Below are positions 3,766 through 58,015 of a DNA stretch of 64,000 nucleotides, piece by piece. Numbering within the stretch: the first letter of the stretch is position 1; each line of letters opens with the position of its first letter. Source of the stretch: Flavobacteriales bacterium. GTDB lineage: Bacteria > Bacteroidota > Bacteroidia > JACJYZ01. The notes beneath the pieces were generated by a model, which did not search any database, was not told the origin of the DNA, and worked only from the letters and a program-made list of their open reading frames with translations. Where the stretch lies: assembly GCA_020435415.1 (NCBI GenBank), contig JAGQZQ010000002.1, positions 26,301-90,300 on the forward strand, given 5' to 3'. Made by a program: the position numbers and the translations under genes.

Positions 3766-3776
3766 GGTGCGCAGAC

Positions 3777-4499: not shown

Positions 4500-4541
4500 T
4501 TAGCCCGTACAAGTCGTCTTCCGAACCAATAATTATCGCAT

Positions 4542-8048: not shown

Positions 8049-8158
8049 TGACATTAACAGCATACAACACCCGGAACATGAATGTAAAAGCGTCGGGTTA
8101 ATTTCATAATAAATGTCAAAATGTCACAGAATATACCATGGCAATGTTTTTGACTACG

Positions 8159-8166
8159 TATCTTTG
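8159..8166 (+). promoter_or_regulatory. TAtcTTTG -7 promoter motif for trxA
   Basis: Exact TAnnTTTG 36 bp upstream of the trxA ATG. Confidence 0.4.
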
Positions 8167-8201
8167 TAAATAGAATTACTAACCTTTAAATTCAAGCAAC
8201 A

Positions 8202-8519: not shown

Positions 8520-8546
8520 GGCAACATGCCACTGGTAACACCTAAA

Positions 8547-8581
8547 CGGCAGGCAGATCGAAAGATCCCTGCCGTTTTTTT
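8547..8581 (+). terminator. Rho-independent terminator of trxA
   Basis: Hairpin cggcagg...cctgccg followed by TTTTTTT. Confidence 0.75.
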
Positions 8582-8596
8582 CATACCTTCACTACC

Positions 8597-10993: not shown

Positions 10994-10994
10994 A

Positions 10995-11172
10995 AGTTAG
11001 TAGATAGTACTTAGTAGTTAGTAGTTAGTGCATTGACTACGCGAAAGGAGGTTTGCCTTCTGTTATGCCTGGGATCTGGACGCTGAGACTTTGGATGTTA
11101 GAAGATACCACATTGGATCATGGAATCCGCATTGACCCTCAACTAACTACTAAGTACTATCTACTAACTACT
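10995..11172. repeat. Perfect ~32-bp inverted repeat (agttagtagatagtacttagtagttagtag / ctactaactactaagtactatctactaact) flanking a ~110-bp core, built from the TAGTAGA heptamer family
   Basis: Direct reverse-complement comparison. It lies between convergent genes 10040..10993(+) and 11178..12017(-), and may double as a bidirectional terminator. Confidence 0.7.
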
Positions 11173-11177
11173 TTATA

Positions 11178-27248: not shown

Positions 27249-27677
27249 TCAGGCAATCTCCACCAGGGTGATCTCAAATGTCAGATCTTTTCCTGCCAGT
27301 GGATGATTGGCATCCACAACAATGCTCTCCTCTTTCACTTCGGTTACGGTAACCACCATAGGCTGGCCACTGTCTTGCTGCGCCTGCAACTGCATACCGA
27401 TCTCAGGTTTTAGCTCAGGCGGCAGGTTGGACTTGGCAACCTCTCCGATCAACTCTTCACGCACAGGACCATAAGCCTCGGCCGAAGGAATATTAACGGT
27501 TTTGTTCTCGCTTATGGACATTCCAACAACCGCCTGATCAAAACCAGGGATCACTTGTCCTTCTCCTACTGTAAACTCCAGAGGATCGCGTCCTTCTGAG
27601 GAGTCGAAAACTTCGCCGTTCTGAAGCGTTCCTTTATAGTGAACTTTTACGGTGTCTTTGTCTTTAGCTACGCTCAT
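27249..27677 (-). CDS. FKBP-type peptidyl-prolyl cis-trans isomerase (SlyD/FkpB-like)
   Basis: 142 aa. KVHYKGTLQNGEVFDSS...PLEFTVGEGQVIPGFDQAVVGM is the FKBP signature. Confidence 0.85.
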   Translation of the reverse strand: MSVAKDKDTVKVHYKGTLQNGEVFDSSEGRDPLEFTVGEGQVIPGFDQAVVGMSISENKTVNIPSAEAYGPVREELIGEVAKSNLPPELKPEIGMQLQAQQDSGQPMVVTVTEVKEESIVVDANHPLAGKDLTFEITLVEIA

Positions 27678-27803: not shown

Positions 27804-27887
<84 letters not shown>

Positions 27888-42519: not shown

Positions 42520-42711
42520 ATGAAAAAAGGAACAGTAAAGTTCTTCAATGAAACAAAAGGTTTTGGTTTCATCAATGAAGACGAGTCAAAGAACGAATAC
42601 TTCGTACACGTATCGGGATTGATTGATGAGATCAGACAAGGTGACGTAGTGGAGTTTGAACTCAAAGAAGGAAAAAAAGGCATGAATGCAGTAAACGTGA
42701 AAGTCGTTTAA
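42520..42711 (+). CDS. cspA: Cold-shock protein (CspA family)
   Basis: 63 aa. KGTVKFFNETKGFGFI contains RNP1, and VHVSGL contains RNP2. Confidence 0.95.
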   Translation: MKKGTVKFFNETKGFGFINEDESKNEYFVHVSGLIDEIRQGDVVEFELKEGKKGMNAVNVKVV

Positions 42712-42736
42712 TCATTCTACCTTAAACTTTTAACTG

Positions 42737-42766
42737 AAGCCCGCTGGTACCAGCGGGCTTTTTTTG
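42737..42766 (+). terminator. Rho-independent terminator of cspA
   Basis: aagcccgctgg-tac-ccagcgggctt plus TTTTTTT. Confidence 0.8.
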
Positions 42767-42774
42767 TGGATGTT

Positions 42775-42980
42775 GCTAGGTGTGAGGTGGTGATTTGGTG
42801 ATGTGATGACCTGCCAGCCGAAGCGCCAGCCATTGTGATAGCAGGCTGGCCTGCCAGCCGAAGCATTAGCCATTGCGCAGGCAGGCTGGTTGGGAAATTG
42901 CTACACTTCGGGTAACGACAAGCATACGGTACGGCAACTTTAAACCTTAAACCTTAAACTTTAAACCAGAAACTAACTTT
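42775..42980. repeat. Composite intergenic repeat element, copy B: GGTGATTT octamers, two CCTGCCAGCCGAAGC REP-like hairpins, a ~40-bp core (cttcgggtaacgacaagcatacggtacggcaac) and TTTAAACC repeats
   Basis: About 88% identical to the reverse complement of 57812..58015 over ~200 bp (aligned by hand). Confidence 0.85.
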
Positions 42981-43572
42981 CCAACGACCGCCACAAATAC
43001 CAGCAACCGATGGTCCGGTAAGGTTTCCATGGGCTAGATATGCGGTTCATCGTGCGTTCGGAGGGGCCGGATTTAAAGCCGTATTGTTCCCGTATCGCCC
43101 GTTGAATGCCCACATCACCTACCGGAAGGATATCCATCCGGTTAAGGGAGAACATCAGGAACATATCTGCGGTCCAGCTTCCGATCCCTTTCAATTCAAT
43201 CAGGTTCTTTTTAACCGTCTCGTCATCCATGTTTTTCATGGCATGGAAATCCACCATCCCTTCATGCACACGTTTTGACAAGTCCAGCACCCAGCTGGCT
43301 TTGGCATTGGATAATCCGGCGGCCCGTAATTGATCCGGGGAGTATCTTAATATGTTTTGCGGATTCATATCGTGATTAATGACATCCATCATCCGTTTCC
43401 AGATGGTATCAGCAGCTTTGGTAGACAATTGCTGGGAAACGATGGCCCCAAGCAAGGAGTGGTAGGGTTCTTTAGGCTTAAGGGTATATGGTCCATGGTC
43501 ACGGATCAATTGCTTCATCACCGGATCAGCAGTAGATAAATGGTTAAGGATTTCTTCTTTCTTCATGGACAT
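42973..43572 (-). CDS. alkA: DNA-3-methyladenine glycosylase II (HhH-GPD family)
   Basis: 199 aa with a helix-hairpin-helix GPD region (LIELKGIGSWTADMFLMF...D) containing the catalytic Asp. Confidence 0.75.
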   Translation of the reverse strand: MSMKKEEILNHLSTADPVMKQLIRDHGPYTLKPKEPYHSLLGAIVSQQLSTKAADTIWKRMMDVINHDMNPQNILRYSPDQLRAAGLSNAKASWVLDLSKRVHEGMVDFHAMKNMDDETVKKNLIELKGIGSWTADMFLMFSLNRMDILPVGDVGIQRAIREQYGFKSGPSERTMNRISSPWKPYRTIGCWYLWRSLES

Positions 43573-43720
43573 TGAAATTTGATAAGGCCTTACGCGCAGC
43601 CGCCAAATTAGACAAACTCCTGTTTTTTATTTACCCCCGCACGAAAATGCGATAACTTTTCCCAACGGTATAATCCATCTGCCATAACTTGTGATCGGGG
43701 TGGGGCCTGCAGCGTCCCTC

Positions 43721-43760
43721 ACTAACTACTATCTACTATCTACTAACTACTATCTACTAA
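43721..43760. repeat. Tandem heptamer array CTACTAT/CTACTAA x5
   Basis: Read directly, in the divergent region between alkA(-) and osmC(+). Confidence 0.9.
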
Positions 43761-43794
43761 TTCGTAACTTCGGGGTTCACAAAAAAACATAACC

Positions 43795-44232
43795 ATGTCT
43801 ATCAGAAAAGCCAATGCCGTATGGAACGGCACACTCAAAGAAGGAAAAGGCACCATGGCCTTTACCGGATATAACGGTCCGTTTACTTTTGCTTCCCGTT
43901 TTGAGGAAGGCTCCGAAACCAATCCGGAAGAACTGGTGGGTGCTGCCCATGCAGGATGTTTCTCCATGTTTCTTTCCGCTTTGCTCTCTGGCGAAGGACT
44001 GAACCCTGAAAGCATTGAGACCGTTGCCAGTGTGACGCTGGAAAGAGATGATACCGGTCCGGTCATCAACCGCATTGTTCTGAACAGCAAAGTAAAATGC
44101 GAAGGACTTTCAAAGGAAAAGTTTGATGAACTGACCGCCAAAGCAAAAGCCAACTGCCCCATCTCACGTTTGTATGCCGGAAGCACGGCAGAGATTGTGC
44201 TGGAAGCAAGTTTGCAGACAGTTCTTGCGTGA
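43795..44232 (+). CDS. osmC: OsmC/Ohr family peroxiredoxin-like protein
   Basis: 145 aa with two conserved Cys (GCFSM, ANCPIS) in the OsmC pattern. Confidence 0.8.
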   Translation: MSIRKANAVWNGTLKEGKGTMAFTGYNGPFTFASRFEEGSETNPEELVGAAHAGCFSMFLSALLSGEGLNPESIETVASVTLERDDTGPVINRIVLNSKVKCEGLSKEKFDELTAKAKANCPISRLYAGSTAEIVLEASLQTVLA

Positions 44233-45884
44233 ACGGGCAGTTCACGCCAAAGTTTTTCACTTTACTAAAACAAGGCATTTCCAGAAAGCAACTGGGTATC
44301 GACGTCATGTCCGGTATCGTTGTAGGCATCGTAGCGTTGCCTCTGGCTATTGCTTTTGCCATAGCTTCGGGAGTATCACCTGAAAAAGGATTGATAACAG
44401 CGATAGTTGCCGGCCTGACTATTTCCATCTTTGGAGGCAGCAAGGTCCAGATCGGTGGTCCTACCGGAGCTTTTATAGTGATCGTATTCGGCATTGTACA
44501 GCAACACGGTGTAGGTGGCCTTATAATAGCAACGTTCCTGGCCGGTTTTCTCTTAATCGCTCTGGGGTTGGTTCGTGCAGGTAAGTACCTTCGTTTTATC
44601 CCACATCCACTGATCATTGGTTTTACCAGTGGCATAGCGGTTGTGATATTTTCTTCGCAAATCAATGAACTGTTGGGGTTAGGGATTGACCATATTCCCG
44701 CTGGATTTGTGGAAAAATGGAGATCATACACCTCGCATATAAACAGCCTCAACATCTATGCTTTGGGGATTGCTGCCGGCACTATTATTATTACCGCGAG
44801 CTTTCACAGATTGTCTCGAATGGTTCCGGGGTCTATCATCGCTATTCTCCTCTCCACAATTGCCGTTTACGTTTTCCACCTGCCTGTTGACACCATTGAA
44901 AGTCGTTTCGGTGAAATCCCGGGCAGTCTGAGTTTGCCGGTGATTCCCGAAGTAGACTTCAACACCATGGGTTCGTTAATCAGGCCCGCTATTACCATTG
45001 CATTATTAGGAGCGATCGAATCACTTTTATCGGCCGTGGTAGCAGACGGGATGATCGGGGGAAGGCACCGACCCAACATAGAGCTGGTGGCACAAGGTGG
45101 TGCCAATATCATATCGGCGATGTTTGGAGGTATCCCTGCGACAGGAGCCATTGCACGTACAGCCACCAACATAAGGAATGGAGGAAGAACCCCCGTTGCC
45201 GGGATTGTACACGCGCTTACCCTTCTGATCATCATGATAGCATTGGCTCCATACGCCAAACTCATACCACTAAGTTGTCTTGCGGGAATACTTTCAGTGG
45301 TTGCTTATAACATGAGTGAATGGCGTCAGTTCGTATCAATACTAAGGAGCCGCAACCTTGAGATACTGATCCTTCTGACTACATTTCTACTTACAATTAT
45401 TTTTGACCTTGTACTGGCTATTGAAATCGGGTTGCTGTTATCCTGTTTTCTTTTCATGAAAAGAATGAGTGATACCTTTTTGGTTCAGGGCGCAATTGTC
45501 AATCATAAAAGAGAGGATGAACTTTTCCAGCAAGAACTGAATTACCCTGCTGATAAGGTCACGTTATATGAGATTAACGGACCACTATTCTTTGGCGCTG
45601 CTCAGCAATTTGCCGATACATTGACCGACTTACGTGTCAAGCCCGGCATCATTATTCTGAGGATGCGTTATGTGCCGTTTATTGATGCAACGGGCTACCA
45701 CAGACTTAAAGAAGTTATTCGTTCTTTTGAAAAGCAAGAAACATGTGTGTTAATTTCCGGCGTAAGTGAGGAACTCATGAAAGATTTTGAAGTCAACAAC
45801 CTATTCACTTATGTCAAACAAGAAAGAGTATTTAAGGAAATTGAAGGTGCATTGAACTACGTACGGTCCGAACTAATTTGCTGA
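44229..45884 (+). CDS. SulP family anion transporter with C-terminal STAS domain
   Basis: 551 aa, multi-TM core plus STAS region. It has a 4-nt overlap with osmC. Confidence 0.85.
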   Translation: MNGQFTPKFFTLLKQGISRKQLGIDVMSGIVVGIVALPLAIAFAIASGVSPEKGLITAIVAGLTISIFGGSKVQIGGPTGAFIVIVFGIVQQHGVGGLIIATFLAGFLLIALGLVRAGKYLRFIPHPLIIGFTSGIAVVIFSSQINELLGLGIDHIPAGFVEKWRSYTSHINSLNIYALGIAAGTIIITASFHRLSRMVPGSIIAILLSTIAVYVFHLPVDTIESRFGEIPGSLSLPVIPEVDFNTMGSLIRPAITIALLGAIESLLSAVVADGMIGGRHRPNIELVAQGGANIISAMFGGIPATGAIARTATNIRNGGRTPVAGIVHALTLLIIMIALAPYAKLIPLSCLAGILSVVAYNMSEWRQFVSILRSRNLEILILLTTFLLTIIFDLVLAIEIGLLLSCFLFMKRMSDTFLVQGAIVNHKREDELFQQELNYPADKVTLYEINGPLFFGAAQQFADTLTDLRVKPGIIILRMRYVPFIDATGYHRLKEVIRSFEKQETCVLISGVSEELMKDFEVNNLFTYVKQERVFKEIEGALNYVRSELIC

Positions 45885-45976
45885 TATTTATCAAATATGA
45901 TATTCTCTTATATGGTTTTTTCACAAAGAATATCCATTTTTAGATTAATATATAGGTTAACAATATAACATAACCC

Positions 45977-46432
45977 ATGCAGGTCAAAGCAAATTCCCCG
46001 GAAGATTACATCCGGAAGATACCGGAGGAAAGACAGGCGACAATGCAAAAACTGCGGCAGGTGATCAGTGATCACTTGCCGCCGGGTTTCACCGAAACCA
46101 TGAACTATGGCATGATCGGGTATGTTGTGCCTCACTCCGTTTACCCCGATGGATACCACTGTGACCCAAAACAACCCCTGCCTTTCATGAATATCGCTTC
46201 ACAGAAGAACTATATCTCGGTATATCACATGGGATTGTATGAGGGGCCCCTGCTCGATTGGTTTAAGACCGAATATCCAAAGCACACCGGTGCCCGGCTG
46301 GATATGGGAAAATGTTGCATACGTTTCAAAAAGCCGGAACAGATACCGTTTGAACTGATCGGTACACTTGCCGGAAAGGTAACTACAGAAGAGTGGATCC
46401 GGATCTATGAAAGTCAAATCAAGAAGCAGTAA
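45977..46432 (+). CDS. DUF1801 domain protein (second copy)
   Basis: Shares the YG(M/I)IGYVVPHS pattern and the same family as 36573..36980. Confidence 0.55.
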   Translation: MQVKANSPEDYIRKIPEERQATMQKLRQVISDHLPPGFTETMNYGMIGYVVPHSVYPDGYHCDPKQPLPFMNIASQKNYISVYHMGLYEGPLLDWFKTEYPKHTGARLDMGKCCIRFKKPEQIPFELIGTLAGKVTTEEWIRIYESQIKKQ

Positions 46433-46434
46433 GA

Positions 46435-46923
46435 ATGGGAAAAATAAGCACTGAGATAAAATGGGCTTTGATTTTTGTTGTGACTTCCCTCACCTGGGTC
46501 ACAGCGGAAAAACTTGCCGGTATGCATGATGAACATATCGATGTACATATGCTCACCACTTCTTTGTTTGCCATACCGGCACTCCTTATTTATGTGCTCG
46601 CTCTTCTTGAAAAAAGAAAGAAGTCGTTCGGTGGATTCATGACCTACAAGCAGGGTTTTTTGAGTGGCATGATCATCACCCTGATCATTACCGCCCTCAG
46701 CCCGGTTAGTCAAGTGATCAAATCCCTCGTGATCACACCGGATTATTTTGCAAACATGATTCAATATACTGTGGACCACGGACTGCTGCTTCCGGAAGAT
46801 GCCGCTGCAGAATTCAATCTGACCAGATATATCAAAGGAAGCATATTCGGCGCATTTTTTATGGGTACCATTACAGCCGCAATCCTGGCGTTTTTCACCA
46901 AAAAACTACCCAACGGGCAATGA
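46435..46923 (+). CDS. DUF4199-like small membrane protein
   Basis: 162 aa with four TM helices. Confidence 0.45.
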   Translation: MGKISTEIKWALIFVVTSLTWVTAEKLAGMHDEHIDVHMLTTSLFAIPALLIYVLALLEKRKKSFGGFMTYKQGFLSGMIITLIITALSPVSQVIKSLVITPDYFANMIQYTVDHGLLLPEDAAAEFNLTRYIKGSIFGAFFMGTITAAILAFFTKKLPNGQ

Positions 46924-47408
46924 ACGACTATTCAGATATTCTGACCGATATCCGTAAGATCGTTCGCTCGGTGAACCTGGAGTCTAAAAGGATTCAAAAG
47001 GATTTCGGAATCAGCATTCCCCAACTTCTTTGCCTATCACATCTGAGTCAATGTGAAGAATTCCAATCGACCCATAAAGACCTTACACGAATTCTTCACC
47101 TCAATTCCAGCACCGTTACCGGTATTGTAAACAGACTGGAAAAGAAAGGCCTGATCGCCCGGTTACCAAAAAAGGACGACAAGCGCGTTACCAATATCGC
47201 ACTCACATCCGCCGGGTACGAAATGCTTGAAAAGACCCCTGATCTGCTGCATCAAAAACTGCTGGCCAGGATTACCGCATTGCCTGAAGAGCAGGTTCAC
47301 TCCATTAAAGCTGCCCTTCAACTGATCATCACCGCCCTTGGCGTTGAGAACCTGGACGCCTCCCCGATGCTCACCATCGAAGACAACATCACACGGGACG
47401 CTACCTAA
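46920..47408 (+). CDS. MarR family transcriptional regulator
   Basis: Winged-HTH region PQLLCLSHLSQCEE...TRILHLNSSTVTGIVNRLEKKGLIAR. Confidence 0.8.
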   Translation: MNDYSDILTDIRKIVRSVNLESKRIQKDFGISIPQLLCLSHLSQCEEFQSTHKDLTRILHLNSSTVTGIVNRLEKKGLIARLPKKDDKRVTNIALTSAGYEMLEKTPDLLHQKLLARITALPEEQVHSIKAALQLIITALGVENLDASPMLTIEDNITRDAT

Positions 47409-47642
47409 ACACATCACCCCACCTTTCCCCTTGAACCTGTCACAATAGGCTTTATCTTTCTTTTTTGTATATTTGTTGTATCGAACATATTTTTAGATTT
47501 AATATGTCTATTTTACCCTTTTAAGTTTTAATTTATTCCTAAAATAACGTAATCATCAATTTTTTTAATAGCAATATCCTTTATAAACGTTATTTTGTTT
47601 CTACACAACCTTTCAGGTCACTAACTGCAAACCCCGACCGTT

Positions 47643-49169
47643 TTGCCTGAACATAAAAGCAAACGGTCCTCTTACCACGCCATACACCACCATGTGTTCT
47701 GGCCATCCCTGGCGGTGATCATTCTGTTTATCGTGGTTACACTGCTGAATCACAAACGTACCGGCGCCTTTTTCTCCGACATACAAACCATGATCTCGGT
47801 GAATACAGGCTGGCTAATGATCCTGGTTGTAAATATCCTTCTGATATTCTGCCTCTACCTGGCATTTGGGAAGTATGCCAATATCCGGCTCGGAGGACCA
47901 CGCGCTAAACCGGAATTCTCTACATCTGCCTGGTTTGCCATGCTGTTCAGCGCCGGAATGGGTATCGGACTTTTATTCTGGAGCGTCGCAGAGCCGATCT
48001 CCCACTATGCCAATCCCCCTACCGGAACCGGAATGACACCAGCTGCCGCACAAACAGCGATGAATGTGACTTTTCTGCACTGGGGACTCCACGCATGGGG
48101 AATTTACGCACTGGTTGGACTGGCATTGGCGTACTTCACCTTTAATAGGAAGCTCCCTCTCACGATCAGTTCACTGTTTCATCCGATCCTCGGAAAACAC
48201 GTAAACGGCCCGATCGGACACATCATTGATACCCTTGCCGTCATCGCTACGCTGTTCGGATTAGCAACCTCACTCGGTTTAGGTGCCAGACAGATCAATG
48301 CCGGTTTGCATTTCCTTCTCGAAACAGAAATCAGTACCAACGTGCAGATTTTCATCATCGCCGGGACAACCCTGGTAGCTACCGCTTCCGTTGTACTAGG
48401 ACTAAAAAACGGGGTGCGGCGACTGAGCGAACTGAACATGTACCTGGCCGCCGCATTTCTCGCAGCCATGCTGTTGTTCGGTCCCACATTATTTATCATC
48501 GACTCCTTTGTTCAGAACACGGGGAGTTACATTCAACAGCTACCCCGCCTGAGCTTTTGGGCAGAAGCCTACAAACAAACCAGCTGGCAGAATGACTGGA
48601 CCATATTCTACTGGGGGTGGTGGATCGCATGGTCACCATTCGTAGGAATGTTCATCGCCCGTATATCCAAAGGACGTACCATCCGGCAATTTGTTCTTGG
48701 GGTATTGCTGGTGCCCACCCTGCTTACATTCATATGGCTGTCAACATTCGGCGGGGCCGCCCTTCATTTGCAGATCACCGGTATGGCAGACATTGTGGGC
48801 GCTGTAAACGATAATGTGGCTACAGCCCTGTTCAAACTGCTCGCCCATTACCCCTACGCCTTTATTTCCTCCACCATCGGACTTGTGCTCATTTGCAGCT
48901 TTTTTGTCACATCCTCGGACTCGGGCTCACTGGTCATCGACAGCATCACCTCGGGTGGCCGGCTGGATGCACCTGTCGGACAAAGGATCTTCTGGGCTCT
49001 CACCGAGGGCGTCGTTGCAGCCATTCTTCTGATCGGAGGCGGATTACAGGCATTACAAACCGCTTCAATTACGACCGGACTTCCTTTTGCCGTGGTGTTG
49101 CTGGTCGTTTGCTACTGCCTTTACAAAGAATTAAATAAACACGAATCACCAAAAAAACAACAACCATGA
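47643..49169 (+). CDS. BCCT family (betaine/carnitine/choline) transporter
   Basis: 508 aa, 12 TM, with conserved BCCT segments (GWWIAWSPFVGMFIARIS, WTIFYWGWW). Confidence 0.9.
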   Translation: MPEHKSKRSSYHAIHHHVFWPSLAVIILFIVVTLLNHKRTGAFFSDIQTMISVNTGWLMILVVNILLIFCLYLAFGKYANIRLGGPRAKPEFSTSAWFAMLFSAGMGIGLLFWSVAEPISHYANPPTGTGMTPAAAQTAMNVTFLHWGLHAWGIYALVGLALAYFTFNRKLPLTISSLFHPILGKHVNGPIGHIIDTLAVIATLFGLATSLGLGARQINAGLHFLLETEISTNVQIFIIAGTTLVATASVVLGLKNGVRRLSELNMYLAAAFLAAMLLFGPTLFIIDSFVQNTGSYIQQLPRLSFWAEAYKQTSWQNDWTIFYWGWWIAWSPFVGMFIARISKGRTIRQFVLGVLLVPTLLTFIWLSTFGGAALHLQITGMADIVGAVNDNVATALFKLLAHYPYAFISSTIGLVLICSFFVTSSDSGSLVIDSITSGGRLDAPVGQRIFWALTEGVVAAILLIGGGLQALQTASITTGLPFAVVLLVVCYCLYKELNKHESPKKQQP

Positions 49170-49993
49170 TGACGAAGGATTTGATGAAAGAGAAAAAGAA
49201 CCAGGATTTTGGAAATAATCCAACTGAAGTCAGGGAAACAGATCACTACAAAGACGAATACGTTCACAAGTTCGTAGAAAAGTGGGACGAACTTATCGAC
49301 TGGAAAGCCCGCGGCGAAGGCGAGGGTAAATTCTTTATTGATGAGTTAAAGAAGCGGGGTAAGCATAAGATCCTGGATGTGGCTACCGGCACCGGTTATC
49401 ATTCCGTGAAACTACTGGATGAAGGCTTTGAAGTGTGGAGTGCAGACGGAAGTCCGGTCATGCTCTCAAAAGCCTTTGAAAATGCCAGAAAACACGGTCA
49501 CCTTATGCATACCATTTATGCAGACTGGCGTTGGCTTAACAAGGATGTGCATGGTAAATTCGATGCCATCATCTGCCTTGGCAATTCTTTTACACACCTG
49601 TTCTCGGAAAACGACCGCCGCAAGGCACTGGCTGAGTTTTATTCCGCACTGAAACACGATGGGATACTCATCATCGATCACCGTAATTATGATGCCATAC
49701 TGGATAATACGGAATTCACCAACAAGCATACATTCTATTATGCCGGAGATAAGGTCAAGGCTGAACCTGAGCATGTGGATGAAGGCCTGGCCCGTTTCAG
49801 GTACGAGTTCCCCGACAAGTCGGAGTTTCATCTCAACATGTTTCCACTTCGGGAAAAATATGTGCAAAACCTGTTAAAGCAGGTGGGTTTTCAAAACATC
49901 TCCACGTACGGAGACTTTCAGGAAACATACCGTTCCGAAACACCGGACTTCTTCATACACATTGCCGAAAAATCATACAGAGAAAACGAATAG
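49166..49993 (+). CDS. Glycine/sarcosine N-methyltransferase (GSMT)
   Basis: SAM motif ILDVATGTGYHSVKLLDEGFEVWSADGSPVMLSKAFEN closely parallels characterised halophile GSMTs. It overlaps the BCCT stop (ATGA). Confidence 0.8.
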   Translation: MMTKDLMKEKKNQDFGNNPTEVRETDHYKDEYVHKFVEKWDELIDWKARGEGEGKFFIDELKKRGKHKILDVATGTGYHSVKLLDEGFEVWSADGSPVMLSKAFENARKHGHLMHTIYADWRWLNKDVHGKFDAIICLGNSFTHLFSENDRRKALAEFYSALKHDGILIIDHRNYDAILDNTEFTNKHTFYYAGDKVKAEPEHVDEGLARFRYEFPDKSEFHLNMFPLREKYVQNLLKQVGFQNISTYGDFQETYRSETPDFFIHIAEKSYRENE

Positions 49994-49996
49994 ATC

Positions 49997-50836
49997 ATGA
50001 GCACAAACGAACTGATCCATACGACCAAAGCTTATTACGACAGCAACGATGCCGATGAGTTTTACCACCGCGTGTGGGGTGGCGAAGATATTCATGTAGG
50101 CATCTACGAACTGCCGGACGAACGCATCTTTCAGGCAAGTCAACGAACCGTTCAGCAGATGATCTCCATGCTACGGTATATTGACGAGAACACAGATGTT
50201 CTTGACATCGGCTCTGGATACGGAGGTGCTGCACGCTACCTTTCCTCCAGATTCAAATGCACTGTTACCTGTCTGAATCTTAGCGAAAAGGAAAATGAAC
50301 GAAACCGCAAAAAGAACAAGGAAGTAGGCCTGGGTGCCTTTATCGACGTACATCAGGGAAATTTTGAGTATATTCCCTTTCCGGATAACTCATTCAACGT
50401 GGTTTGGTCGGAAGACGCCATTCTGCATAGCGACAACAAAGCCAAAGTTTTTCATGAGGTATCCCGTGTACTTAAGACCGGTGGGCAGTTTATCTTTACC
50501 GATCCGATGCAAAGTGATGATTGCCCTGCAGATGTACTCAAGCCGGTGCTTGACCGTATTCACCTGAAAGAACTGGGGTCTGTGAAACTATACCGAGCCC
50601 TTGCATCAGCCAATGGATTGGAAGAAGTACGTATCATGGAAATGCCGGAACAACTGGTGAACCATTATTCCTCGGTAAAAAGAGAGCTCCAGGGAAAAAA
50701 GGAAGAACTGAAAGATTATGTGAGTGATGACTATATCACCCGGATGCTTGCTGGCCTGGACCATTGGATAGATGGAGGGAAAAAAGGCTACCTGAACTGG
50801 GGAATCCTTCAGTTTAAAAAATCGGGTAAAGCGTGA
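49997..50836 (+). CDS. Sarcosine/dimethylglycine N-methyltransferase (SDMT)
   Basis: N-terminal YYDSNDADEFYHRVWGGEDIHVGIY and VLDIGSGYGGAARYL are hallmark SDMT segments. It starts 3 nt after GSMT. Confidence 0.8.
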   Translation: MSTNELIHTTKAYYDSNDADEFYHRVWGGEDIHVGIYELPDERIFQASQRTVQQMISMLRYIDENTDVLDIGSGYGGAARYLSSRFKCTVTCLNLSEKENERNRKKNKEVGLGAFIDVHQGNFEYIPFPDNSFNVVWSEDAILHSDNKAKVFHEVSRVLKTGGQFIFTDPMQSDDCPADVLKPVLDRIHLKELGSVKLYRALASANGLEEVRIMEMPEQLVNHYSSVKRELQGKKEELKDYVSDDYITRMLAGLDHWIDGGKKGYLNWGILQFKKSGKA

Positions 50837-51083
50837 TGATGTCCGATTAAGAACAAGCCGTGACCCCAGCTTTCCTGTACGACTATCTATATTTAAACAA
50901 GCCTCTGTTCTTGTGATATTTATCAACATAAATATCAGATTTCCATACCTTAATGTAGATGGGTATATCGCAGACACCCCTTCCAAATGCTTTCGTAGTT
51001 TGCTATAAGAAAGCGTATTCGTAATTTTCCACCGGAGGTAGAGTCGTTAGGCACATTGTCTATCGCCGCGAAACAATTCGAGT

Positions 51084-52595
51084 ATGCACAAGGAAAGCCT
51101 GTTCAACCTGATCAAATCACTGAACCGCAACGAAAAGGGGTACTTTAAAAAGTTTGTGTCCAGCCGTACGGATTCATCACGCAACAATTACATCAAGTTG
51201 TTTGACATCATCGACAAACAGGATGTATATGATGAAGCGGCCCTGAAGGAGAAGGTGGATGTAAAGAAGATCGCTAAGAACCTCAGTGTTTACAAGAACT
51301 ATCTGTACGGCTCAATCCTTAAAAGCCTGAGATCATACCACCAGGAAATTTCCGTGGATGCAACCCTCCATGAAATGCTCAGGGATGCAGAGATTCTGTT
51401 CAACAAGTCGCTGTTGCGGGATTGTGAATCGGTGATACGCAAAGCAATTTCCCTTGCCTATAAACATGAAAAGTTCACTGCCCTGCTTGATCTCTACGCA
51501 CTTCTTCACCGGTTGATCATGCAACTGGAGAACAGCGACGATGCCTATCAGCAATCCTTTACCGTACACTTCCAGGAACAGCAAAACATCCTTAATGCCT
51601 ATGCTGAACTCGTGCATATGCGCATGCTGAATTCCCGGATGCGCCACTTCTTCACCAACAAATGGGAAGAGCCGGAGAAAAGCATGGAAGGCATGAAAAA
51701 GATCATGGAAGACCTGGCTGAACAGGAAAAGGCCCGACCCGTTTCATACAAAGCCGGCATCTACCACCATTACCTGCTCAGCTTTATCCACGGTTACTAT
51801 TTTGAAGACAATCAAAAGGGTTACGAACACAGCATGAAGTTGGTGGAACACATCGAATCCAACCCGGTTTTGCTGAACGACGAACCGGAATCCTATATCA
51901 CGGCACTGAACAACCTCATGATACGTGAGGTGAAATTGAAGAAGGACAGTGAATTCAATCTCACCCTGGAGAAACTCAAGAACATTCCGAATAAGTTTAT
52001 CAACCGCGAGATCCGGATCATAGAAAAAGTCTGGAATGTAAGTCTGATGTACTTCATCGAACGCGGTAAGATTGATGAAGGAATCCTATTCGTAAAGGAA
52101 AATGAAGCGCTCTTTACTTCTTATGAAGAAGCCATCCCATCCAGCCTTCGTCTGGCTATTTATGATAGCGTGGTGTCCCTCTATTTTATCAACGGCGATA
52201 TGTCGGCCGCCCTTCGCTGGGTGAACAAGATCATCACCAGAAAGTGGCACGGCAGGGAAGACTTTCAGTCATTCGCCAGGCTGCTGGCCATGATGATCCA
52301 TTTTGAAAAAGGGAACAGTGATGTCATAGAAAGCAAGTACAACAGTTACTACCGCTTCATCACCGGATACCTTGGCAAAGATGGTCCGGAGGAAATATTG
52401 GTATCCTTTCTGCGTAAGGTCAGCCGCCTCACCGATCCTTCGTCCGTCAACCGCGCTTTCTCAAAGATCCTGGAGGAGTGGCCCTCGGATCACCGGAATG
52501 CACGAATATTCGAATGTGTGGATGTCCGCCTGTGGTTCCGTTCCAAGATCGAAAAGAGACCGTTGAAAGCACTTCACATCGAGCAAACCAGGTAG
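51084..52595 (+). CDS. Hypothetical all-helical cytoplasmic protein (503 aa)
   Basis: No signal peptide. Content is TPR/helical-repeat-like. Confidence 0.35.
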   Translation: MHKESLFNLIKSLNRNEKGYFKKFVSSRTDSSRNNYIKLFDIIDKQDVYDEAALKEKVDVKKIAKNLSVYKNYLYGSILKSLRSYHQEISVDATLHEMLRDAEILFNKSLLRDCESVIRKAISLAYKHEKFTALLDLYALLHRLIMQLENSDDAYQQSFTVHFQEQQNILNAYAELVHMRMLNSRMRHFFTNKWEEPEKSMEGMKKIMEDLAEQEKARPVSYKAGIYHHYLLSFIHGYYFEDNQKGYEHSMKLVEHIESNPVLLNDEPESYITALNNLMIREVKLKKDSEFNLTLEKLKNIPNKFINREIRIIEKVWNVSLMYFIERGKIDEGILFVKENEALFTSYEEAIPSSLRLAIYDSVVSLYFINGDMSAALRWVNKIITRKWHGREDFQSFARLLAMMIHFEKGNSDVIESKYNSYYRFITGYLGKDGPEEILVSFLRKVSRLTDPSSVNRAFSKILEEWPSDHRNARIFECVDVRLWFRSKIEKRPLKALHIEQTR

Positions 52596-52649
52596 GACAC
52601 AACAGTGTACCATTGATCAAAAGATCGCGTTATATACAAAAGCGCGGCC

Positions 52650-53984
52650 ATGAAAAAATCCCTGTTGATCCTCCTGTTGCCCGTGATAGCCTATGCACAG
52701 GAACTTCCCCTTCCCTATTTGCAGGCACCACTTACCGATGAGGTGAAATCCGCCATGCAGCAAATCATTGCCTCCGGCAACCTTAAAGAAACCATTACCA
52801 TCCCCTTGCTCTCCATAAAAGAGATACGGAAACTCAACATCGGTCAGCAAGCTGAACTGTCGCGCCACCGCGCCCTTCTGATCAGGGACTATTGCGTGGA
52901 AGAACTACAATTCAACCCTTATGACATAAACATCGCGGTGACTCCTTTTCAATGTGAGAACACCGCCAAACGCGGAGGACAAACTATCACTACCGCACAA
53001 TACCAGTCGTTCACCAACCAACAGGGTATCTCACAATTGGTATTAAATAAAACCGGAAACCTGTTCGATTATTCCGGATCATGTATACCTGTGGACACAC
53101 TGCCCTATGAAGAGTTCACCGTATCCAATGAAGAAGAGCAAGTCATCATTACCCGTCAGGGCGTCAGGGTGATATTCCCGGTGCATGCTTTCCGTTTAAA
53201 ATCCACCGACTGCTACGAGGTTACCTTGCGTATCAAAGAATTCCTGACCACCGAAGATATCATCCGGTCACAACTCACAACACACTCCGGAACCCAGTTA
53301 CTGGAAACAGGAGGCATGATCTCCATTGAAGCCACCTGTAACAACAAAAATATAGCCCTTCTCAAGCCGATCACCATTAAGATCCCCACCACAGGACAAT
53401 CCAAAGACATGGACCTGTTCCGCGGGCATCAGGCACAGGACCTGATCAACTGGACAAAAGATGCAGGCACGAAGGTGTACCGGCAGCCAATAGGCTCACT
53501 GGTGACCGATGAACCTACAACAAACGTGCTGGTCACCACCAATGTGAATGAAGAAGGATTTTTGGATGAAGATGTATGGGAAGGTGAAGGCGAAAGCGCA
53601 TTTGAATCCGAGATGGATTATTTTGTCATGAAAACCACCAAACTGGGCCTGATCAATTGCGATATCTTTCTGGATGTTCCGGAACCCAGGGAACTTCTGG
53701 TCAGAACAGATAGCACCAACATGATCGTCCGGCTGGTGTTTAAGGATATTCGAAGTATTCTTCCCGGTTATTATTTCGATAATAACAGAAGAGATATTAA
53801 ATTATCAGGAATCCCAAATGGCATGCAGGCCACCCTGCTGGTTTTCGCTGATAAAGGGAAAGGTCAGGTCAGGTGGGCCGCACAACCCATCACAATAGGC
53901 ACCGACCGTATTGTAGAAAACATGGCTTATGCGGTTTCCTCCAAAGAAGAATGGGGAAACTACCTGAAAAGCCTTCAATGGTAG
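52650..53984 (+). CDS. Hypothetical secreted protein (444 aa)
   Basis: Signal peptide MKKSLLILLLPVIAYAQ. Confidence 0.4.
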   Translation: MKKSLLILLLPVIAYAQELPLPYLQAPLTDEVKSAMQQIIASGNLKETITIPLLSIKEIRKLNIGQQAELSRHRALLIRDYCVEELQFNPYDINIAVTPFQCENTAKRGGQTITTAQYQSFTNQQGISQLVLNKTGNLFDYSGSCIPVDTLPYEEFTVSNEEEQVIITRQGVRVIFPVHAFRLKSTDCYEVTLRIKEFLTTEDIIRSQLTTHSGTQLLETGGMISIEATCNNKNIALLKPITIKIPTTGQSKDMDLFRGHQAQDLINWTKDAGTKVYRQPIGSLVTDEPTTNVLVTTNVNEEGFLDEDVWEGEGESAFESEMDYFVMKTTKLGLINCDIFLDVPEPRELLVRTDSTNMIVRLVFKDIRSILPGYYFDNNRRDIKLSGIPNGMQATLLVFADKGKGQVRWAAQPITIGTDRIVENMAYAVSSKEEWGNYLKSLQW

Positions 53985-54045
53985 TGATCTCTCGCGCACA
54001 TCGTGGCAATACATTCAAAAATCATATATATTTGCTACGAGTGTT

Positions 54046-54576
54046 ATGAGACAAGCCTCCTCTATCCTGTTATTGTTTTCCCTGCTGTTCAGCATAGCAG
54101 GCCCATATTCCTTGTTTCATATACTGCAATACCAGGCGAGAAGGGAGATGAAAACAGCCATCAAGAGTGGCATTCCCGAGAAAGACCTGCAACGCATCGT
54201 CTTTTCATCTGAACATGAGATCCATTGGGAAAAGCCCGGCAAGGAATTCCGGGTGGGCAACCGCCTGTTCGATGTGATCCGGTATGAAAAAACCGAAGAA
54301 GGGTTAGTCTTCACCTGCATCAACGATATACAAGAATCACAACTATTTGCCAACCTCGACGAATTGGTCAGAAGCAATGTCAATGACCAACGTTCTTCCC
54401 GATACCCCCTGACCAGGGTGGCTGTGAAACTTCTATCACAGGTTTACCTACCCGTGGAGCATTCTACCATATTTACAGATGTTCTCCACACGGTTCATCA
54501 CACTGCGGTGCAGGCATCCCTTGCTTGTCCGGTTATTGAAACGCCTTCCCCTCCGCCCGACAATAGGTTCGCATAA
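54046..54576 (+). CDS. Hypothetical membrane-anchored protein (176 aa)
   Basis: N-terminal TM SSILLLFSLLFSIAGPYSLF. Confidence 0.35.
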   Translation: MRQASSILLLFSLLFSIAGPYSLFHILQYQARREMKTAIKSGIPEKDLQRIVFSSEHEIHWEKPGKEFRVGNRLFDVIRYEKTEEGLVFTCINDIQESQLFANLDELVRSNVNDQRSSRYPLTRVAVKLLSQVYLPVEHSTIFTDVLHTVHHTAVQASLACPVIETPSPPPDNRFA

Positions 54577-54647
54577 CGAGTCTATTATTTATCTTCCGGG
54601 CATCGGTCCCGGTTGCAACCTATTGTTATTCTATAAAATCTATTACT

Positions 54648-55070
54648 ATGAAACGCAATTTGCTCATTGCATTCGTGGCTGTGGCATGTGTTCTTACAGC
54701 TTGCAAAAAATATGAAGAAGGCCCGGCCTTCAGTTTACGTTCCGCCAAAGCCCGCCTTTCCGGCGACTGGAAAGTGGCGTCCTTTTCCATTGACGGCGTT
54801 GACCAAACGGCGTCCTACCTGGCCACCATTGGTAACAACTTTGTCATTGACATCGAAAAAGATGGCAAATACCGTGTTGAAGGCAGCTTCACCGACGAAG
54901 GCAGCTGGGAACTCGGAGAAGACGGGGACGATGTCCGCTTCAAGTCGGATGCAGCCGGTTCTACTGAAGATTCATACCGGATTCTTAAGTTAAAGAACAA
55001 AGAATTGTGGCTCAAGCAAACCCAGACCAATGGCGAGGTGCATGAGACACACTTCGAGCCTGCCGACTAA
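54648..55070 (+). CDS. Small lipoprotein (lipocalin-like?)
   Basis: Lipobox VLTAC. Confidence 0.45.
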   Translation: MKRNLLIAFVAVACVLTACKKYEEGPAFSLRSAKARLSGDWKVASFSIDGVDQTASYLATIGNNFVIDIEKDGKYRVEGSFTDEGSWELGEDGDDVRFKSDAAGSTEDSYRILKLKNKELWLKQTQTNGEVHETHFEPAD

Positions 55071-55139
55071 CTAAACCTTGTATAACCTCTGGTCCGCATT
55101 TGTTTCATCAGGTGCGGACCGGCATGGTTCTTTATCATC

Positions 55140-57395
55140 ATGAGAATCGTTTTTTTATGGCTGCTTTGCCTGGTGTGGGCTGCGGCATATCCACAGGTAT
55201 GCATTACAGGGAAGGTTGTGTCGGATTCTTCCGGAACACCCGTTACCCTGGCCAATGTGTACATTCCTGAATATGGGGTTGCCTCCGCCACTGACCACGA
55301 CGGAGCATTTACCTTATGCAAACTTCCGGAGGGAACGGTGCACCTCCAGGTGACCTATGTGGGATACCGGACCTTTATATCCAGGGTACAGATCAGTGAT
55401 ACGCTACAAGAAATTAATATCACCCTGACACCTTCTGCCATCGATTACCAGGAAGTGACGGTGTACGGTGAACAAACCTCCGCGTCAAATGCAACGGCCA
55501 ACAACATCGCGTCGCTGTCTACCATTTCTATGAGACAGCAAGGTGCACTGACGCTGGTGGATGGAATGGCCCAATTACCGGGCGTGCAGAAACTAACCAC
55601 CGGTCCGGGCATATCCAAGCCGGTCATCCGCGGACTGTACGGCAACCGCATTCAAACTGTTGTATTCGGATTGAAGTATGACAGTCAGCAATGGCAGGAT
55701 GAACACGGTCTCGGCCTCACAGATATGGGTGTTGACCGCATCGAAGTGATCAAAGGCCCGGCATCTCTGCTTTACGGTTCAGAGGCCATGGGAGGGGTTC
55801 TGAATATCCTTGAAGAGAAACCGGCGCCGGTCGGACAGACATTGGGAGATGCTACCGTGCGTTTCTCATCCAATACATTGGGCTTGTCTACCGATGCGGG
55901 CATCAAAAGTTCGACAGAAAATAATCACTGGCGTATACGTCTGGGTGAAGAAAATCATGCAGACTATACAGATGGCCGGGGAGAACGCGTACTGAATTCC
56001 CGATTCGCAGGTTATCATGCCAAGGCTTCCTACGGACATCTTTCAGGCAAATGGACCTCCGAAAACAACTATGCATTCTCCCTGAGCCACATGGGTTTCC
56101 TGCTTGAAGCCGGACAACCACTCGTTCCGGACGACCGCAACAGCAGGAGTTTTCAGCTTCCGCATCATACGGTATTCATGCACATTCTTGCGACCAAAAA
56201 CACATTTTACCTGGGCCGTTCCGTCCTCAAAACAAACATTGGGGTTCACCTGAATAACCGTCAGGAGCAGGAAGGTGGCAACCGCATCAGTCTGGACATG
56301 CAACTGAACAGCTACACCGGAAATACGATATGGTCAAGGAGAATCGGAAAAAATTCAGAGGTGAGTGCCGGCATCCAGGCCATGCACCAGACCAATGTCA
56401 ATAACGGCTCCCGGTCCATTGTCCCCGATGCATCGATCAGCGAGGGTTCAATCTTCACCTATTTAAAACATCATTTCAAATCGCTGGTGATGGAGGGTGG
56501 TTTCCGTTATGACCTGAAACATATCAACACACTGCCTACCGGCACCATTAACAACGACTTCCCCAATAATCCCGGGAAAGAGGTCATCCCCTTCAGCCGA
56601 ACCTATGGCACTGTGAATAGTTCCGCCGGCGTGAGCTTTGTTAAAAAACACTGGAATGTAAAAGCAAACATCTCCACCGGCTACAGGGCAGGCAACCTGG
56701 CAGAGCTTTCATCCAACGGCTTGCATGAAGGCACCATCCGCTATGAGATCGGCAACATCCATTTGCCCATAGAACAAAATGCCTGCACCGACCTCACCGC
56801 CACCTATGAAGTTCGGGCATTGACAGTATCCGCCTCCGGATTTTACAATCAATTTCACGACTACATTTTCCTGGCTCCCATCAACAAGGAATACATCGGA
56901 TTTCCCATTTACCTGTACATACGCGACAATGCCTCACTCATAGGATGGGAGGGCGATGTGCAGCTTCACCCGAAGGCCTTTGGAAATGTATCGCTTCGTG
57001 CAACATGTGCACAGGTAACCGGCAAGGCAGGTAATGGCGATTATCTGCCATTCATTCCCGCAGGAAAGATCACCGGCGAAGTGAAATGGAAATCGAAGGA
57101 AAACATCAAACGCAGACAAACTTTTGCGGGCTTCGGTGCAGATCACATCTTACCACAGGATCATCCCGCGCAATTCGAAACAAGCAGTCCGGGCTATACG
57201 CTCATCCATGCTTCGGCAGGTGTCAGCTTCATTGGTCAGCGACGCGATGTGATGCTGTCGGTGGCCGCCACCAACCTTTTGAATGAAGTCTACTTCGATC
57301 ACTTATCACGCTACAAGTATTACAACATCTTTGACATGGGAAGAAACATTTCCGTGCACTGTCATATCACATTTCACAAAAAATCAACCTTATGA
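55140..57395 (+). CDS. TonB-dependent receptor with N-terminal carboxypeptidase-regulatory-like domain
   Basis: 751 aa. The segment running DYQEVTVYGE...VIRGL through GLKYDSQQWQ...VIKGPASLLYGSEAMGGVLNI is the plug domain, and the protein ends with a C-terminal aromatic residue, as in the TonB-dependent receptor family. Confidence 0.85.
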   Translation: MRIVFLWLLCLVWAAAYPQVCITGKVVSDSSGTPVTLANVYIPEYGVASATDHDGAFTLCKLPEGTVHLQVTYVGYRTFISRVQISDTLQEINITLTPSAIDYQEVTVYGEQTSASNATANNIASLSTISMRQQGALTLVDGMAQLPGVQKLTTGPGISKPVIRGLYGNRIQTVVFGLKYDSQQWQDEHGLGLTDMGVDRIEVIKGPASLLYGSEAMGGVLNILEEKPAPVGQTLGDATVRFSSNTLGLSTDAGIKSSTENNHWRIRLGEENHADYTDGRGERVLNSRFAGYHAKASYGHLSGKWTSENNYAFSLSHMGFLLEAGQPLVPDDRNSRSFQLPHHTVFMHILATKNTFYLGRSVLKTNIGVHLNNRQEQEGGNRISLDMQLNSYTGNTIWSRRIGKNSEVSAGIQAMHQTNVNNGSRSIVPDASISEGSIFTYLKHHFKSLVMEGGFRYDLKHINTLPTGTINNDFPNNPGKEVIPFSRTYGTVNSSAGVSFVKKHWNVKANISTGYRAGNLAELSSNGLHEGTIRYEIGNIHLPIEQNACTDLTATYEVRALTVSASGFYNQFHDYIFLAPINKEYIGFPIYLYIRDNASLIGWEGDVQLHPKAFGNVSLRATCAQVTGKAGNGDYLPFIPAGKITGEVKWKSKENIKRRQTFAGFGADHILPQDHPAQFETSSPGYTLIHASAGVSFIGQRRDVMLSVAATNLLNEVYFDHLSRYKYYNIFDMGRNISVHCHITFHKKSTL

Positions 57396-57808
57396 AACCG
57401 CAACTAAAATCAGGAAGTCTATTGGTCATGCTCGCGCTGACGGTCTCCTTCTTTTCATGCAAAAAAGAAAAAGATGCGCATGTGCCGCCGGATGTGGTAT
57501 TCAAAACAAGTGCAGGCTACACGTCCGCCGATGCCACGGTAGGCCAGGGAGACACGCTGCTGGTAGGCATTGTGGCCACTAAAACAGAAGACGATCTGAA
57601 AAGCTTTAATGTCTCTTATGCCTACGACGGCGCCTCAAGCACCACCACATTTCACAACTACTTTATGACCTCATCGGAGTATGAAGGCTATTCCGCCGAC
57701 ACCGAGATCATCACGCGCAACCAGGTCGGCACAGAGAAGTGGGTTTTCTCCATCGTGGACCGGGATGGAAATATCACACAAAAGACGTTGATCCTGACGG
57801 TGCAGTAG
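57392..57808 (+). CDS. Lipoprotein translationally coupled to the TonB-dependent receptor
   Basis: ATGA stop/start overlap and lipobox SFFSC. Confidence 0.45.
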   Translation: MKPQLKSGSLLVMLALTVSFFSCKKEKDAHVPPDVVFKTSAGYTSADATVGQGDTLLVGIVATKTEDDLKSFNVSYAYDGASSTTTFHNYFMTSSEYEGYSADTEIITRNQVGTEKWVFSIVDRDGNITQKTLILTVQ

Positions 57809-57811
57809 GGA

Positions 57812-58015
57812 GGGTAGTTTCTGGTTTCTGGTTTAAGGTTTAAAGTTGCCGTACCGCATGCTTGTCGTTACCCGAAGAGTACTGCAATCACCAAACCAGC
57901 CTGCCTGCGCTATAGCTAATGCTTCGGCTGGCAGGCCAGCCTGCCCTGCAATGGCCTAAGCGGCGGCTGGCAGGTCATCAAATCATCACATCACCAAATC
58001 ACTCAATCACCAAAT
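57812..58015. repeat. Composite intergenic repeat element, copy C (inverted relative to copy B)
   Basis: The reverse complement aligns with 42775..42980 with the same order of modules (TTTAAACC repeats, core, REP hairpins, octamers). Confidence 0.85.

Follow-up and report, generated by a model that had tools for sequence, protein, structure and literature searches.

The stretch of DNA considered here, which we refer to as the window, comprises 64,000 nucleotides (nt) of contig JAGQZQ010000002.1 (positions 26,301 to 90,300 of the forward strand) in assembly GCA_020435415.1, the metagenome-assembled genome (MAG) of a Flavobacteriales bacterium. Its proteins include MCB0395200.1 and MCB0395214.1 (locus tag KDD36_01090), and positions are counted from its first letter. 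Our subject is an intergenic repeat element of about 200 nt, found in the window as two mutually inverted copies that flank a 14.8-kb block of genes. The left copy lies between the convergent genes csp (42520-42711, plus strand) and an alkA-like gene for an HhH-GPD glycosylase (42973-43572, minus strand). The right copy lies between a gene for a protein of 138 amino acids (aa) (57392-57808, plus strand) and a convergent gene for a 1953-aa Calx-beta protein of the type IX secretion system (T9SS) (58077-63938, minus strand).

Two inverted copies of a four-module element

According to Pfam the block encodes the HhH-GPD glycosylase, OsmC, SulP/STAS, DUF1801 (open reading frame (ORF) 45977-46432), DUF4199, MarR (46920-47408), BCCT, two S-adenosylmethionine (SAM) methyltransferases, a weakly matching TPR protein and a TonB-dependent receptor, together with the 138-aa protein and three ORFs without domains. 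The hypothetical ORFs are of 503, 444, 176, 140 and 138 aa. In the ORFs from 39160 to 63938, which include all 15 of the block, no recombinase, integrase or invertase domain was found, and ARAGORN detected no tRNA or transfer-messenger RNA (tmRNA) in the window. Although csp possesses an intrinsic terminator (Table 1), there is no canonical terminator for alkA, for the 138-aa gene or for the giant Calx-beta/T9SS gene, and no promoter-like or terminator-like site was found inside the element.

When positions 42775-42980 were globally aligned with the reverse complement of 57812-58015, the two copies showed 171 matches, 25 mismatches and 18 gap columns, an identity of 87% over aligned bases (171/196), or of 80% with gaps counted. 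The local alignment score is 230, to be compared with a maximum of 26 among shuffled sequences (n=300), and the longest perfect runs are of 30, 27 and 20 nt. The same relation between the copies emerged from direct reading, from a repeat finder and from a MAFFT alignment.

Both copies present the same order of modules: GGTGATKT octamers, two tandem hairpin units, a core, and heptamers of the AACCTTA/AACCAGA type. The hairpin units are 39-40 nt long, start with CCTGCCAGCCGAAGC and end with GGCTGG; in predicted folds their outer stem has 6-7 bp (CCAGCC/GGCTGG or GCCTGCC/GGCAGGC), which fits a GC-rich imperfect palindrome of 20-40 nt. The copies differ mostly in the length of their arrays and in a diverged first hairpin unit, whereas hardly any differences are found in the second unit and the core. 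The two ends of the element are not complementary, with GGTGATTT-type octamers on one side and AACCAGA-type heptamers on the other. On its heptamer side each copy adjoins the stop codon of a co-oriented gene, at a distance of 0 nt for alkA and of 9 nt for the 138-aa gene, and both copies have the same polarity with respect to that gene. The copies are therefore inverted with respect to one another because each shares the polarity of its abutting gene, and polarity alone is sufficient to account for this arrangement.

A first description of this DNA, made from the letters alone (the sequence-only reading), had reported an inverted pair of ~200 bp with ~88% identity, a common order of octamers, tandem hairpins, core and heptamer repeats, and an intergenic location of both copies. 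Each of these statements was borne out, and the location is moreover between convergent genes. Its gene list for the block also largely agrees with Pfam, except that there are more hypothetical ORFs than the three it counted and that 45977-46432 proved to be DUF1801. Its statement that no integrase or transposase is present holds for the 17 ORFs scanned with Pfam, which cover 39.2-63.9 kb.

Table 1. Positions of the two copies, their modules and related features in the window. R1, hairpin model.
Feature	Position	Strand	Remarks
Left copy	42782-42980	+	Octamers, u1, u2, core, heptamer array
Left-copy octamers	42782-42809	+	GGTGATKT
Left-copy hairpin units	u1 42810-42849, u2 42850-42889	+	u2, 39.7 bits with R1
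Left-copy core	42890-42938	+	
Left-copy heptamer array	42936-42975	+	
33-nt core CTTCGGGTAACGACAAGCATACGGTACGGCAAC	42906-42938	+	Best-conserved part of the pair
Right copy	57812-58015	-	Inverted; same modules
Right-copy octamers	57975-58015	-	GGTGATKT
Right-copy hairpin units	u3 57936-57974, u4 57896-57935	-	u4, 36.4 bits with R1
Right-copy core	57845-57895	-	
Right-copy heptamers	57812-57847	-	
33-nt core, right copy	57845-57877	-	One difference from left (32/33)
csp intrinsic terminator	42736-42761	+	Upstream of left copy, outside the repeat; only canonical terminator near either copy
Third mosaic element	1465-1810	+	Divergent intergenic region; differently assembled; without core
Third-element octamers	1465-1536		GGTGATTT
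Third-element heptamers	1753-1798		ACTATCT
Third-element hairpin unit	1619-1663		Opposite relative orientation; 35.4 bits with R1
TAGTAGA-type heptamer array	1398-1419		Directly upstream of minus-strand gene starting at 1390
Inverted heptamer-array pair	10991-11181		TAGTAGT 10991-11029, ACTAACT 11142-11181; 110-nt spacer
AGTAGAT x9 array	27804-27866		Divergent intergenic region beside FKBP gene
ACTATCT-type array	43721-43759		Between divergent alkA and osmC; 36 nt upstream of osmC start

Dispersed modules and the collinear backbone

The modules of the element are dispersed and recombined elsewhere in the window and are lacking in relatives. The exact 15-mer CCTGCCAGCCGAAGC occurs at 1641, 42810, 42850 and 57921, with a two-mismatch copy at 57960, where 0.11 occurrences would be expected. 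In 64 kb there are thus five hairpin units at three loci, and with E<1e-5 the hairpin model R1 finds in the window only 42842-42892, 57893-57943 and 1619-1663. The last of these belongs to a third mosaic element (Table 1), whose octamers (1465-1548) are joined by the repeat finder with those of the left copy (42774-42809) in a single family, D3. The unique parts of this third element match nothing else in the window or in the fetched loci. The 33-mer of the core, CTTCGGGTAACGACAAGCATRCGGTACGGCAAC, has two matches in the window (0 expected), those of the pair, and no further copy was found in the window or in any fetched locus. A 20-mer from the core had no match in the metagenome collection and a 25-mer had none in the viral collection, nor did a 21-mer from the hairpin match in the latter. 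A blastn search of plasmids and phages with the element returned nothing relevant, and comparison of a six-frame peptide concatenate of both copies with the protein database (E up to 10) revealed no spurious ORFs over other copies.

Heptamer arrays are present in six intergenic sites of the window. The inverted pair at 10991-11181 lies between two convergent genes, each array being in contact with the stop codon of one of them. Arrays of the TAGTAGA/ACTATCT kind are often arranged as inverted pairs, and often placed either immediately at stop codons or at a distance of 8-130 nt before start codons. Other heptamers (AGCATAC, CTGTATG) are located beside osmC in the relative GCA_020635855.1, and since these differ from those of the window, the habit of forming such arrays may be older than the present heptamer sequences.

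In about 112 kb from five relatives the best match to R1 had E = 0.45, and 7-8-nt arrays, as sought with Tandem Repeats Finder, were almost absent. The module of four genes that adjoins the right copy (176 aa, 140 aa, TonB receptor, 138 aa) is kept in 5/5 relatives, with a different downstream gene in each. The spacer that follows the 138-aa gene measures 268 nt in the window, of which about 205 nt are the element, as compared with 140, 61, 60, 18 and 5 nt in the relatives.

Among relatives with long contigs, the closest is GCA_020635855.1 (891-kb contig; 68-78% protein identity). On this contig, in flipped order, a giant HYR protein is followed by fmt, FKBP, an M13 peptidase, alkA (minus strand) and osmC (plus strand), after which come about 8.6 kb of other genes and then genes for proteins of 174 aa and 138 aa, a TonB receptor and a protein of 137 aa. 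The backbone of the window has the same order and orientation: the giant HYR gene (ending at 26220), fmt (26223-27137), FKBP (27255-27677), the M13 peptidase (32594-34681), alkA, osmC and the 176aa-140aa-TonB-138aa module. Collinearity therefore spans the left copy and reaches the right end of the block. The two genomes differ in what lies between osmC and the 176-aa gene, and in what separates the M13 peptidase from alkA.

The sequence-only reading had considered that the repeats might be the edges of an acquired island, in this case a 14.8-kb osmoadaptation island obtained by horizontal transfer. It is true that in GCA_020635855.1 different genes occupy the place of the block interior (sulP, BCCT, the glycine sarcosine and sarcosine dimethylglycine methyltransferase genes GSMT and SDMT, and others). 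However, the replaced part extends from after osmC to before the 176-aa gene rather than from repeat to repeat, and alkA-osmC and the TonB module are ancestral neighbors. The variable cassette is thus the block interior and not a repeat-bounded unit. Further, the block has a GC content of 47.2%, compared with 47.0-48.3% in three control segments; its tetranucleotide correlation with the rest of the window is r = 0.956 (controls, 0.93-0.95), and its GC content at third codon positions is 0.55 compared with 0.53. There is no integrase in the Pfam-scanned ORFs, no tRNA in the window and no direct repeat resembling an att site. The comparison of composition and synteny to which that reading had pointed accordingly speaks against island borders, a proposal that is largely refuted and now hardly credible.

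That reading had also suggested that the pair might mediate inversion. As a recombination substrate, inverted copies would let the 14.8-kb segment flip, and one would then expect either a population with both orientations or the trace of a past inversion. The copies are suited to this role in that they are 200 nt long with perfect runs of up to 30 nt, and the commonly cited minimum length for RecA-dependent exchange is near that of these runs. Both copies are also placed where gene content differs from that of GCA_020635855.1. Yet the window is collinear with this relative from the giant HYR gene to the TonB module, and therefore the present orientation is ancestral. Three independent metagenome contigs, obtained from other samples, extend across the whole left copy, and 3/3 show the same junction, csp-element-alkA (L121, L132 and L133; these are assembled contigs rather than reads, and they cover the left copy only). 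No invertase was found in the ORFs scanned with Pfam, and a divergence of 13% between the copies strongly reduces recombination. We regard such a role as quite unlikely. Judged by composition and gene order, the block is neither foreign nor inverted relative to GCA_020635855.1.

Several side observations concern these junctions. The stretch 44229-53984 of the window (sulP, DUF1801, DUF4199, marR, BCCT, the two methyltransferases of the betaine pathway and two hypotheticals) has as its counterpart, between the same anchor genes, positions 304-9427 of the locus fetched from GCA_020635855.1 (L124), with glycosyltransferases, a T9SS-tail protein, DUF2807 and others. Beside the 3' end of alkA, the same locus carries at 10623-11916 a pair of genes for a BglII-like endonuclease and an MT-A70 methyltransferase, and at the corresponding position of the window (42712-42972) csp and the left copy are found instead. 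Because the occupants of the alkA 3' junction differ between the two genomes, it appears to be a hotspot of gene turnover. Four more contigs (L122, L123, L128 and L130) end inside the left copy, in the hairpin units or the core, and such breaks were considered as a sign of multiple copies. This was rejected, since low coverage is a simpler cause: the contigs of this species are all shorter than 2.2 kb, and others end outside the element. Finally, in GCA_023251035.1 (L256, 1022-1600) a cold-shock gene is directly upstream of a 179aa-143aa-TonB-123aa module, without the segment from alkA to the 444-aa gene. We have not used this as an empty site, for the genome is distant (34% GC), its csp is 63% identical and the gene upstream has no match in the window. 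The adjacency could be coincidental, csp paralogues being common.

Nature of the element

The reading that we favor, with a probability of roughly 0.6, is that the pair represents diverged copies of one lineage-specific, non-coding mosaic repeat that belongs to a genome-wide family and is comparable to the bacterial interspersed mosaic elements (BIMEs) and to BOX. The dispersal of modules in the window and their lack in relatives fit a lineage-specific expansion of intergenic repeats. The sequence-only reading had offered an element like BIMEs or the repetitive extragenic palindromic (REP) sequences as its alternative, and this is better than an island or an inversion, although it is only partly shown: the dispersed modules that are missing in relatives agree with it, but the element is a composite whose core is seen twice, and it has no GTAG foot.

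Several of the results count against the favored reading. First, there are only two core-bearing copies, and these are 14.8 kb apart. Second, the whole element folds no better than shuffled sequences on either strand (z from -0.06 to -0.66). Third, no Y1 transposase was found among the 17 Pfam-scanned ORFs, which cover 39.2-63.9 kb apart from the small csp. Fourth, neither terminal inverted repeats nor a direct repeat flanking either copy could be detected; given that there is also no transposase among these 17 ORFs, a classical miniature inverted-repeat transposable element is excluded. Fifth, the location of both copies where gene content differs from GCA_020635855.1 means that a link to rearrangement is possible. 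With two core-bearing copies on record, the element may instead have been duplicated just locally and might now and then recombine over the 30-nt perfect run, but this we consider improbable.

It might also be argued that the core and hairpins are not a selfish repeat but a paralogous functional element, that is, a selected regulatory RNA or protein site in the 3' untranslated region (UTR) of two genes of the stress block. Consistent with this argument, conservation is highest in the core (32/33), divergence having affected the first hairpin unit and the arrays, and in both copies the element adjoins the stop codon of the upstream gene with the same polarity to it. On the other hand, Rfam gave no element family in the window at the gathering threshold and, at a permissive threshold, nothing but noise, with no match of E<0.1 inside the element. 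The absence of a folding signal above that of shuffles and of promoter-like or terminator-like sites points the same way, and covariation is unusable with two copies. The element is, in addition, missing from the orthologous sites of five relatives. We consider a functional RNA or protein site of this kind unlikely.

Comparison with known systems supports the mosaic-repeat reading in some respects and sets the element apart in others. REP and BIME sequences are characterized by a GTAG/GTGG foot that is recognized by a REP-associated tyrosine transposase (RAYT), by tens to hundreds of copies per genome, and by a RAYT gene that is often itself flanked by REPs. Like the BIMEs of E. coli and other enterobacteria, the present element is non-coding and strictly intergenic, lies after stop codons and between convergent genes, and is a mosaic of GC-rich imperfect palindromes of 35-40 nt and short motifs that are recombined across loci. 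However, its hairpin units are direct tandems, whereas REP units alternate in BIMEs; the units begin with CCTGCCAGCC and have GTAG or GTGG at neither foot; no RAYT is encoded by the Pfam-scanned ORFs of the window; and, unlike in BIMEs, tandem arrays of 7 and 8 nt border the units. Since the GTAG foot is absent and any RAYT partner would be hypothetical, the element is classed as BIME-like in its working and not as a member of that family. The BOX element of Streptococcus pneumoniae (boxA, boxB xn, boxC) likewise has a unit of about 40-45 nt repeated between unique end modules, is about 200 nt long and intergenic, and has no coding capacity. Its sequence is dissimilar, it has no short 7-8-nt arrays, and its complementary ends fold the whole element, whereas ours folds like shuffled sequence. 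The heptamer arrays resemble the short tandemly repeated repetitive (STRR) sequences of heterocystous cyanobacteria, which are tandem heptanucleotides confined to intergenic regions, present at many loci with lineage-specific sequences and sometimes combined with small hairpins or dispersed repeats inserted in the arrays. They differ in phylum and in unit sequence, and the window arrays are often inverted pairs at stops or just upstream of starts.

Each copy combines four modules, namely an array of 8-nt units, a pair of GC-rich 40-nt hairpin units, a core of 33-49 nt and an array of 7-nt units, and fills the gap between two convergent genes. If the favored reading is correct, the family would have spread by the copying of a non-autonomous unit. 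One candidate route is single-strand transposition guided by the hairpins and carried out by an enzyme of the RAYT or IS200 kind whose gene lies elsewhere, and another is recombination with gene conversion between 3' regions. The short arrays may expand and contract by replication slippage. Transcripts of the upstream gene would carry the element as their untranslated 3' end, where its hairpins would block 3' exonucleases or aid termination, the roles played by REP and BIME elements in E. coli.

These results remove the inference that the betaine and osmoprotection genes are carried on a mobile or invertible cassette. They also call for caution on the part of annotators and assemblers, who in this MAG lineage will meet dispersed mosaic repeats of 200 nt and many intergenic 7-8-nt arrays. 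Mosaic intergenic repeats have been well studied in only a few model bacteria, and that picture is broadened by a case in an uncultured flavobacterium that combines tandem hairpins with slippage-prone arrays. In this lineage the element represents a variation on a familiar type of repeat, and the hairpin described next is a lead that may merit a study of its own.

A hairpin at the CCA end of tRNA genes

Hairpin words taken from the window, including for genome contigs the pattern CCTGCCAGCCGAAGCN{10,24}GGCTGG, matched more than 230 loci from other organisms among the matches listed (L001-L120 from genomes and L134-L246 from metagenomes). A fuller form that goes beyond the search pattern, CTGG-CCTG-CCAGCC-GAA-GC[variable stem-loop]GC-GAA-GGCTGG, is present in 82/120 of the genome loci and 87/113 of the metagenome loci among the matches listed. 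About two thirds of the listed matches to the genome pattern are real hairpins and one third chance occurrences in GC-rich coding DNA. An exact 21-mer core is found at the u1/u2 and u3/u4 junctions of the window and in at least 113 metagenome stretches. The record titles span many phyla, with low-GC Patescibacteria, Dependentiae and Rickettsiales among them, and include one cultured isolate (Enterovirga, L055).

Full hairpins number 173 among the matches listed; 116 of them directly adjoin the 3' end of a tRNA or tmRNA gene that runs on the opposite strand, and about a third adjoin no tRNA. In all of the tRNA-adjacent cases listed (111/111) the tRNA's CCA coincides exactly with that of CCAGCC on the tRNA strand, where the hairpin reads CCAGCC-UUC-GC[stem-loop]GC-UUC-GGCUGG-CAGG (for example L018 2911-3070, L033 7427-7533, L135, and L009 1803-2284). 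The inner stem covaries, with 47 double changes compared with 13.3 in shuffles, a number that 0/500 shuffles reached; its cells are paired in 97% of cases as opposed to 19-43% with partners slid. The invariance of the outer stem and of the 5' GAA is uninformative because both were fixed by the search words. Some trailers in these loci have the same architecture with a different sequence, such as CCAUGAAGU...ACUUCAUGG in L011. In 15 hairpin loci Rfam yielded no family for the hairpin at the gathering threshold beyond tRNA, tmRNA and rRNA, and noise at a permissive one, and a literature search by sequence string or phrase turned up nothing relevant and no published name.

A second, inverted copy of the hairpin often lies 45-70 nt away, which is the layout of REPINs, inverted REP doublets that are mobilized by RAYTs. 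REPINs, however, are not tied to the CCA of tRNA, whereas this family is in exact CCA register, and the window units are direct tandems rather than inverted doublets. To our knowledge no RAYT is associated with the family.

The window units share with this family the 21-nt core (GGCTGG-CCTG-CCAGCC-GAAGC; outer stem, CCAGCC/GGCTGG), and their R1 scores are 35-40 bits. They do not have its symmetric GAA/GAA (or GAA/GUA) internal loop, the 3' GCGAAGG being replaced by GCAGGCA or similar; their inner stem is weak, unlike the covarying GC-closed stem of the family; and ARAGORN places them at the CCA end of no tRNA or tmRNA in the window. The hairpin unit would have degenerated from a cross-phylum hairpin whose usual starting point is the CCA of a tRNA gene, and would have lost the accompanying tRNA. 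Tentatively, we suggest that the 40-nt unit is a displaced and decaying copy of an undescribed structured element of at least a dozen phyla, native to the CCA of tRNA and tmRNA, which escaped to seed mosaic 3'-UTR repeats; the groups named for this element are Alphaproteobacteria, Acidobacteriota, Verrucomicrobiota, Nitrospirota, Patescibacteria and Dependentiae. It is possible, with about as much reserve, that in the native form the encoded CCA is base-paired within a hairpin whose outer stem is invariant and which has a GAA/GAA loop and a covarying inner stem. The family may serve either as a signal for 3'-end processing or termination of tRNA precursors or as a mobile element that targets tRNA ends. 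If truly undescribed, it offers a lead on tRNA 3'-end biology or on such a mobile element.

A related explanation is that each copy in the window marks a lost tRNA gene, of which the CCA-hairpin trailer has survived. The identity of the hairpin core over 21 nt with trailers that follow tRNA genes in many phyla is what recommends it. Nevertheless, ARAGORN finds no tRNA in the window, a tRNA model has no match in 42700-43000 with E up to 10, the third element carries the hairpin in another context, and the hairpin is found without a tRNA in another Bacteroidota genome (L020). Such an origin of the copies is very improbable, and the notion that the core itself is a decayed tRNA was rejected on the ARAGORN and tRNA-model results.

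In several unrelated loci the family hairpin is flanked by tandem arrays of 7-9 nt (L134 500-545; L032 ~200-250; L056 2700-2790; L063; L203). In L032 the array directly follows a tRNA and every 9-nt unit starts with CCA. The array unit of L134, ATCACCAG, resembles ATCACCAA of the window and is on the same side and strand; this similarity could be due to chance, with an estimated probability of roughly 0.06.

Two further repeats of the window are located within genes. One is an internal tandem duplication of 2208 bp (~72% identity) at 59984-63416 in the 1953-aa Calx-beta/T9SS gene, and the other is a periodic repeat of 243 nt at 24502-25293 in the giant HYR-type gene. Each corresponds to repeated protein domains and is unrelated to the intergenic repeats.

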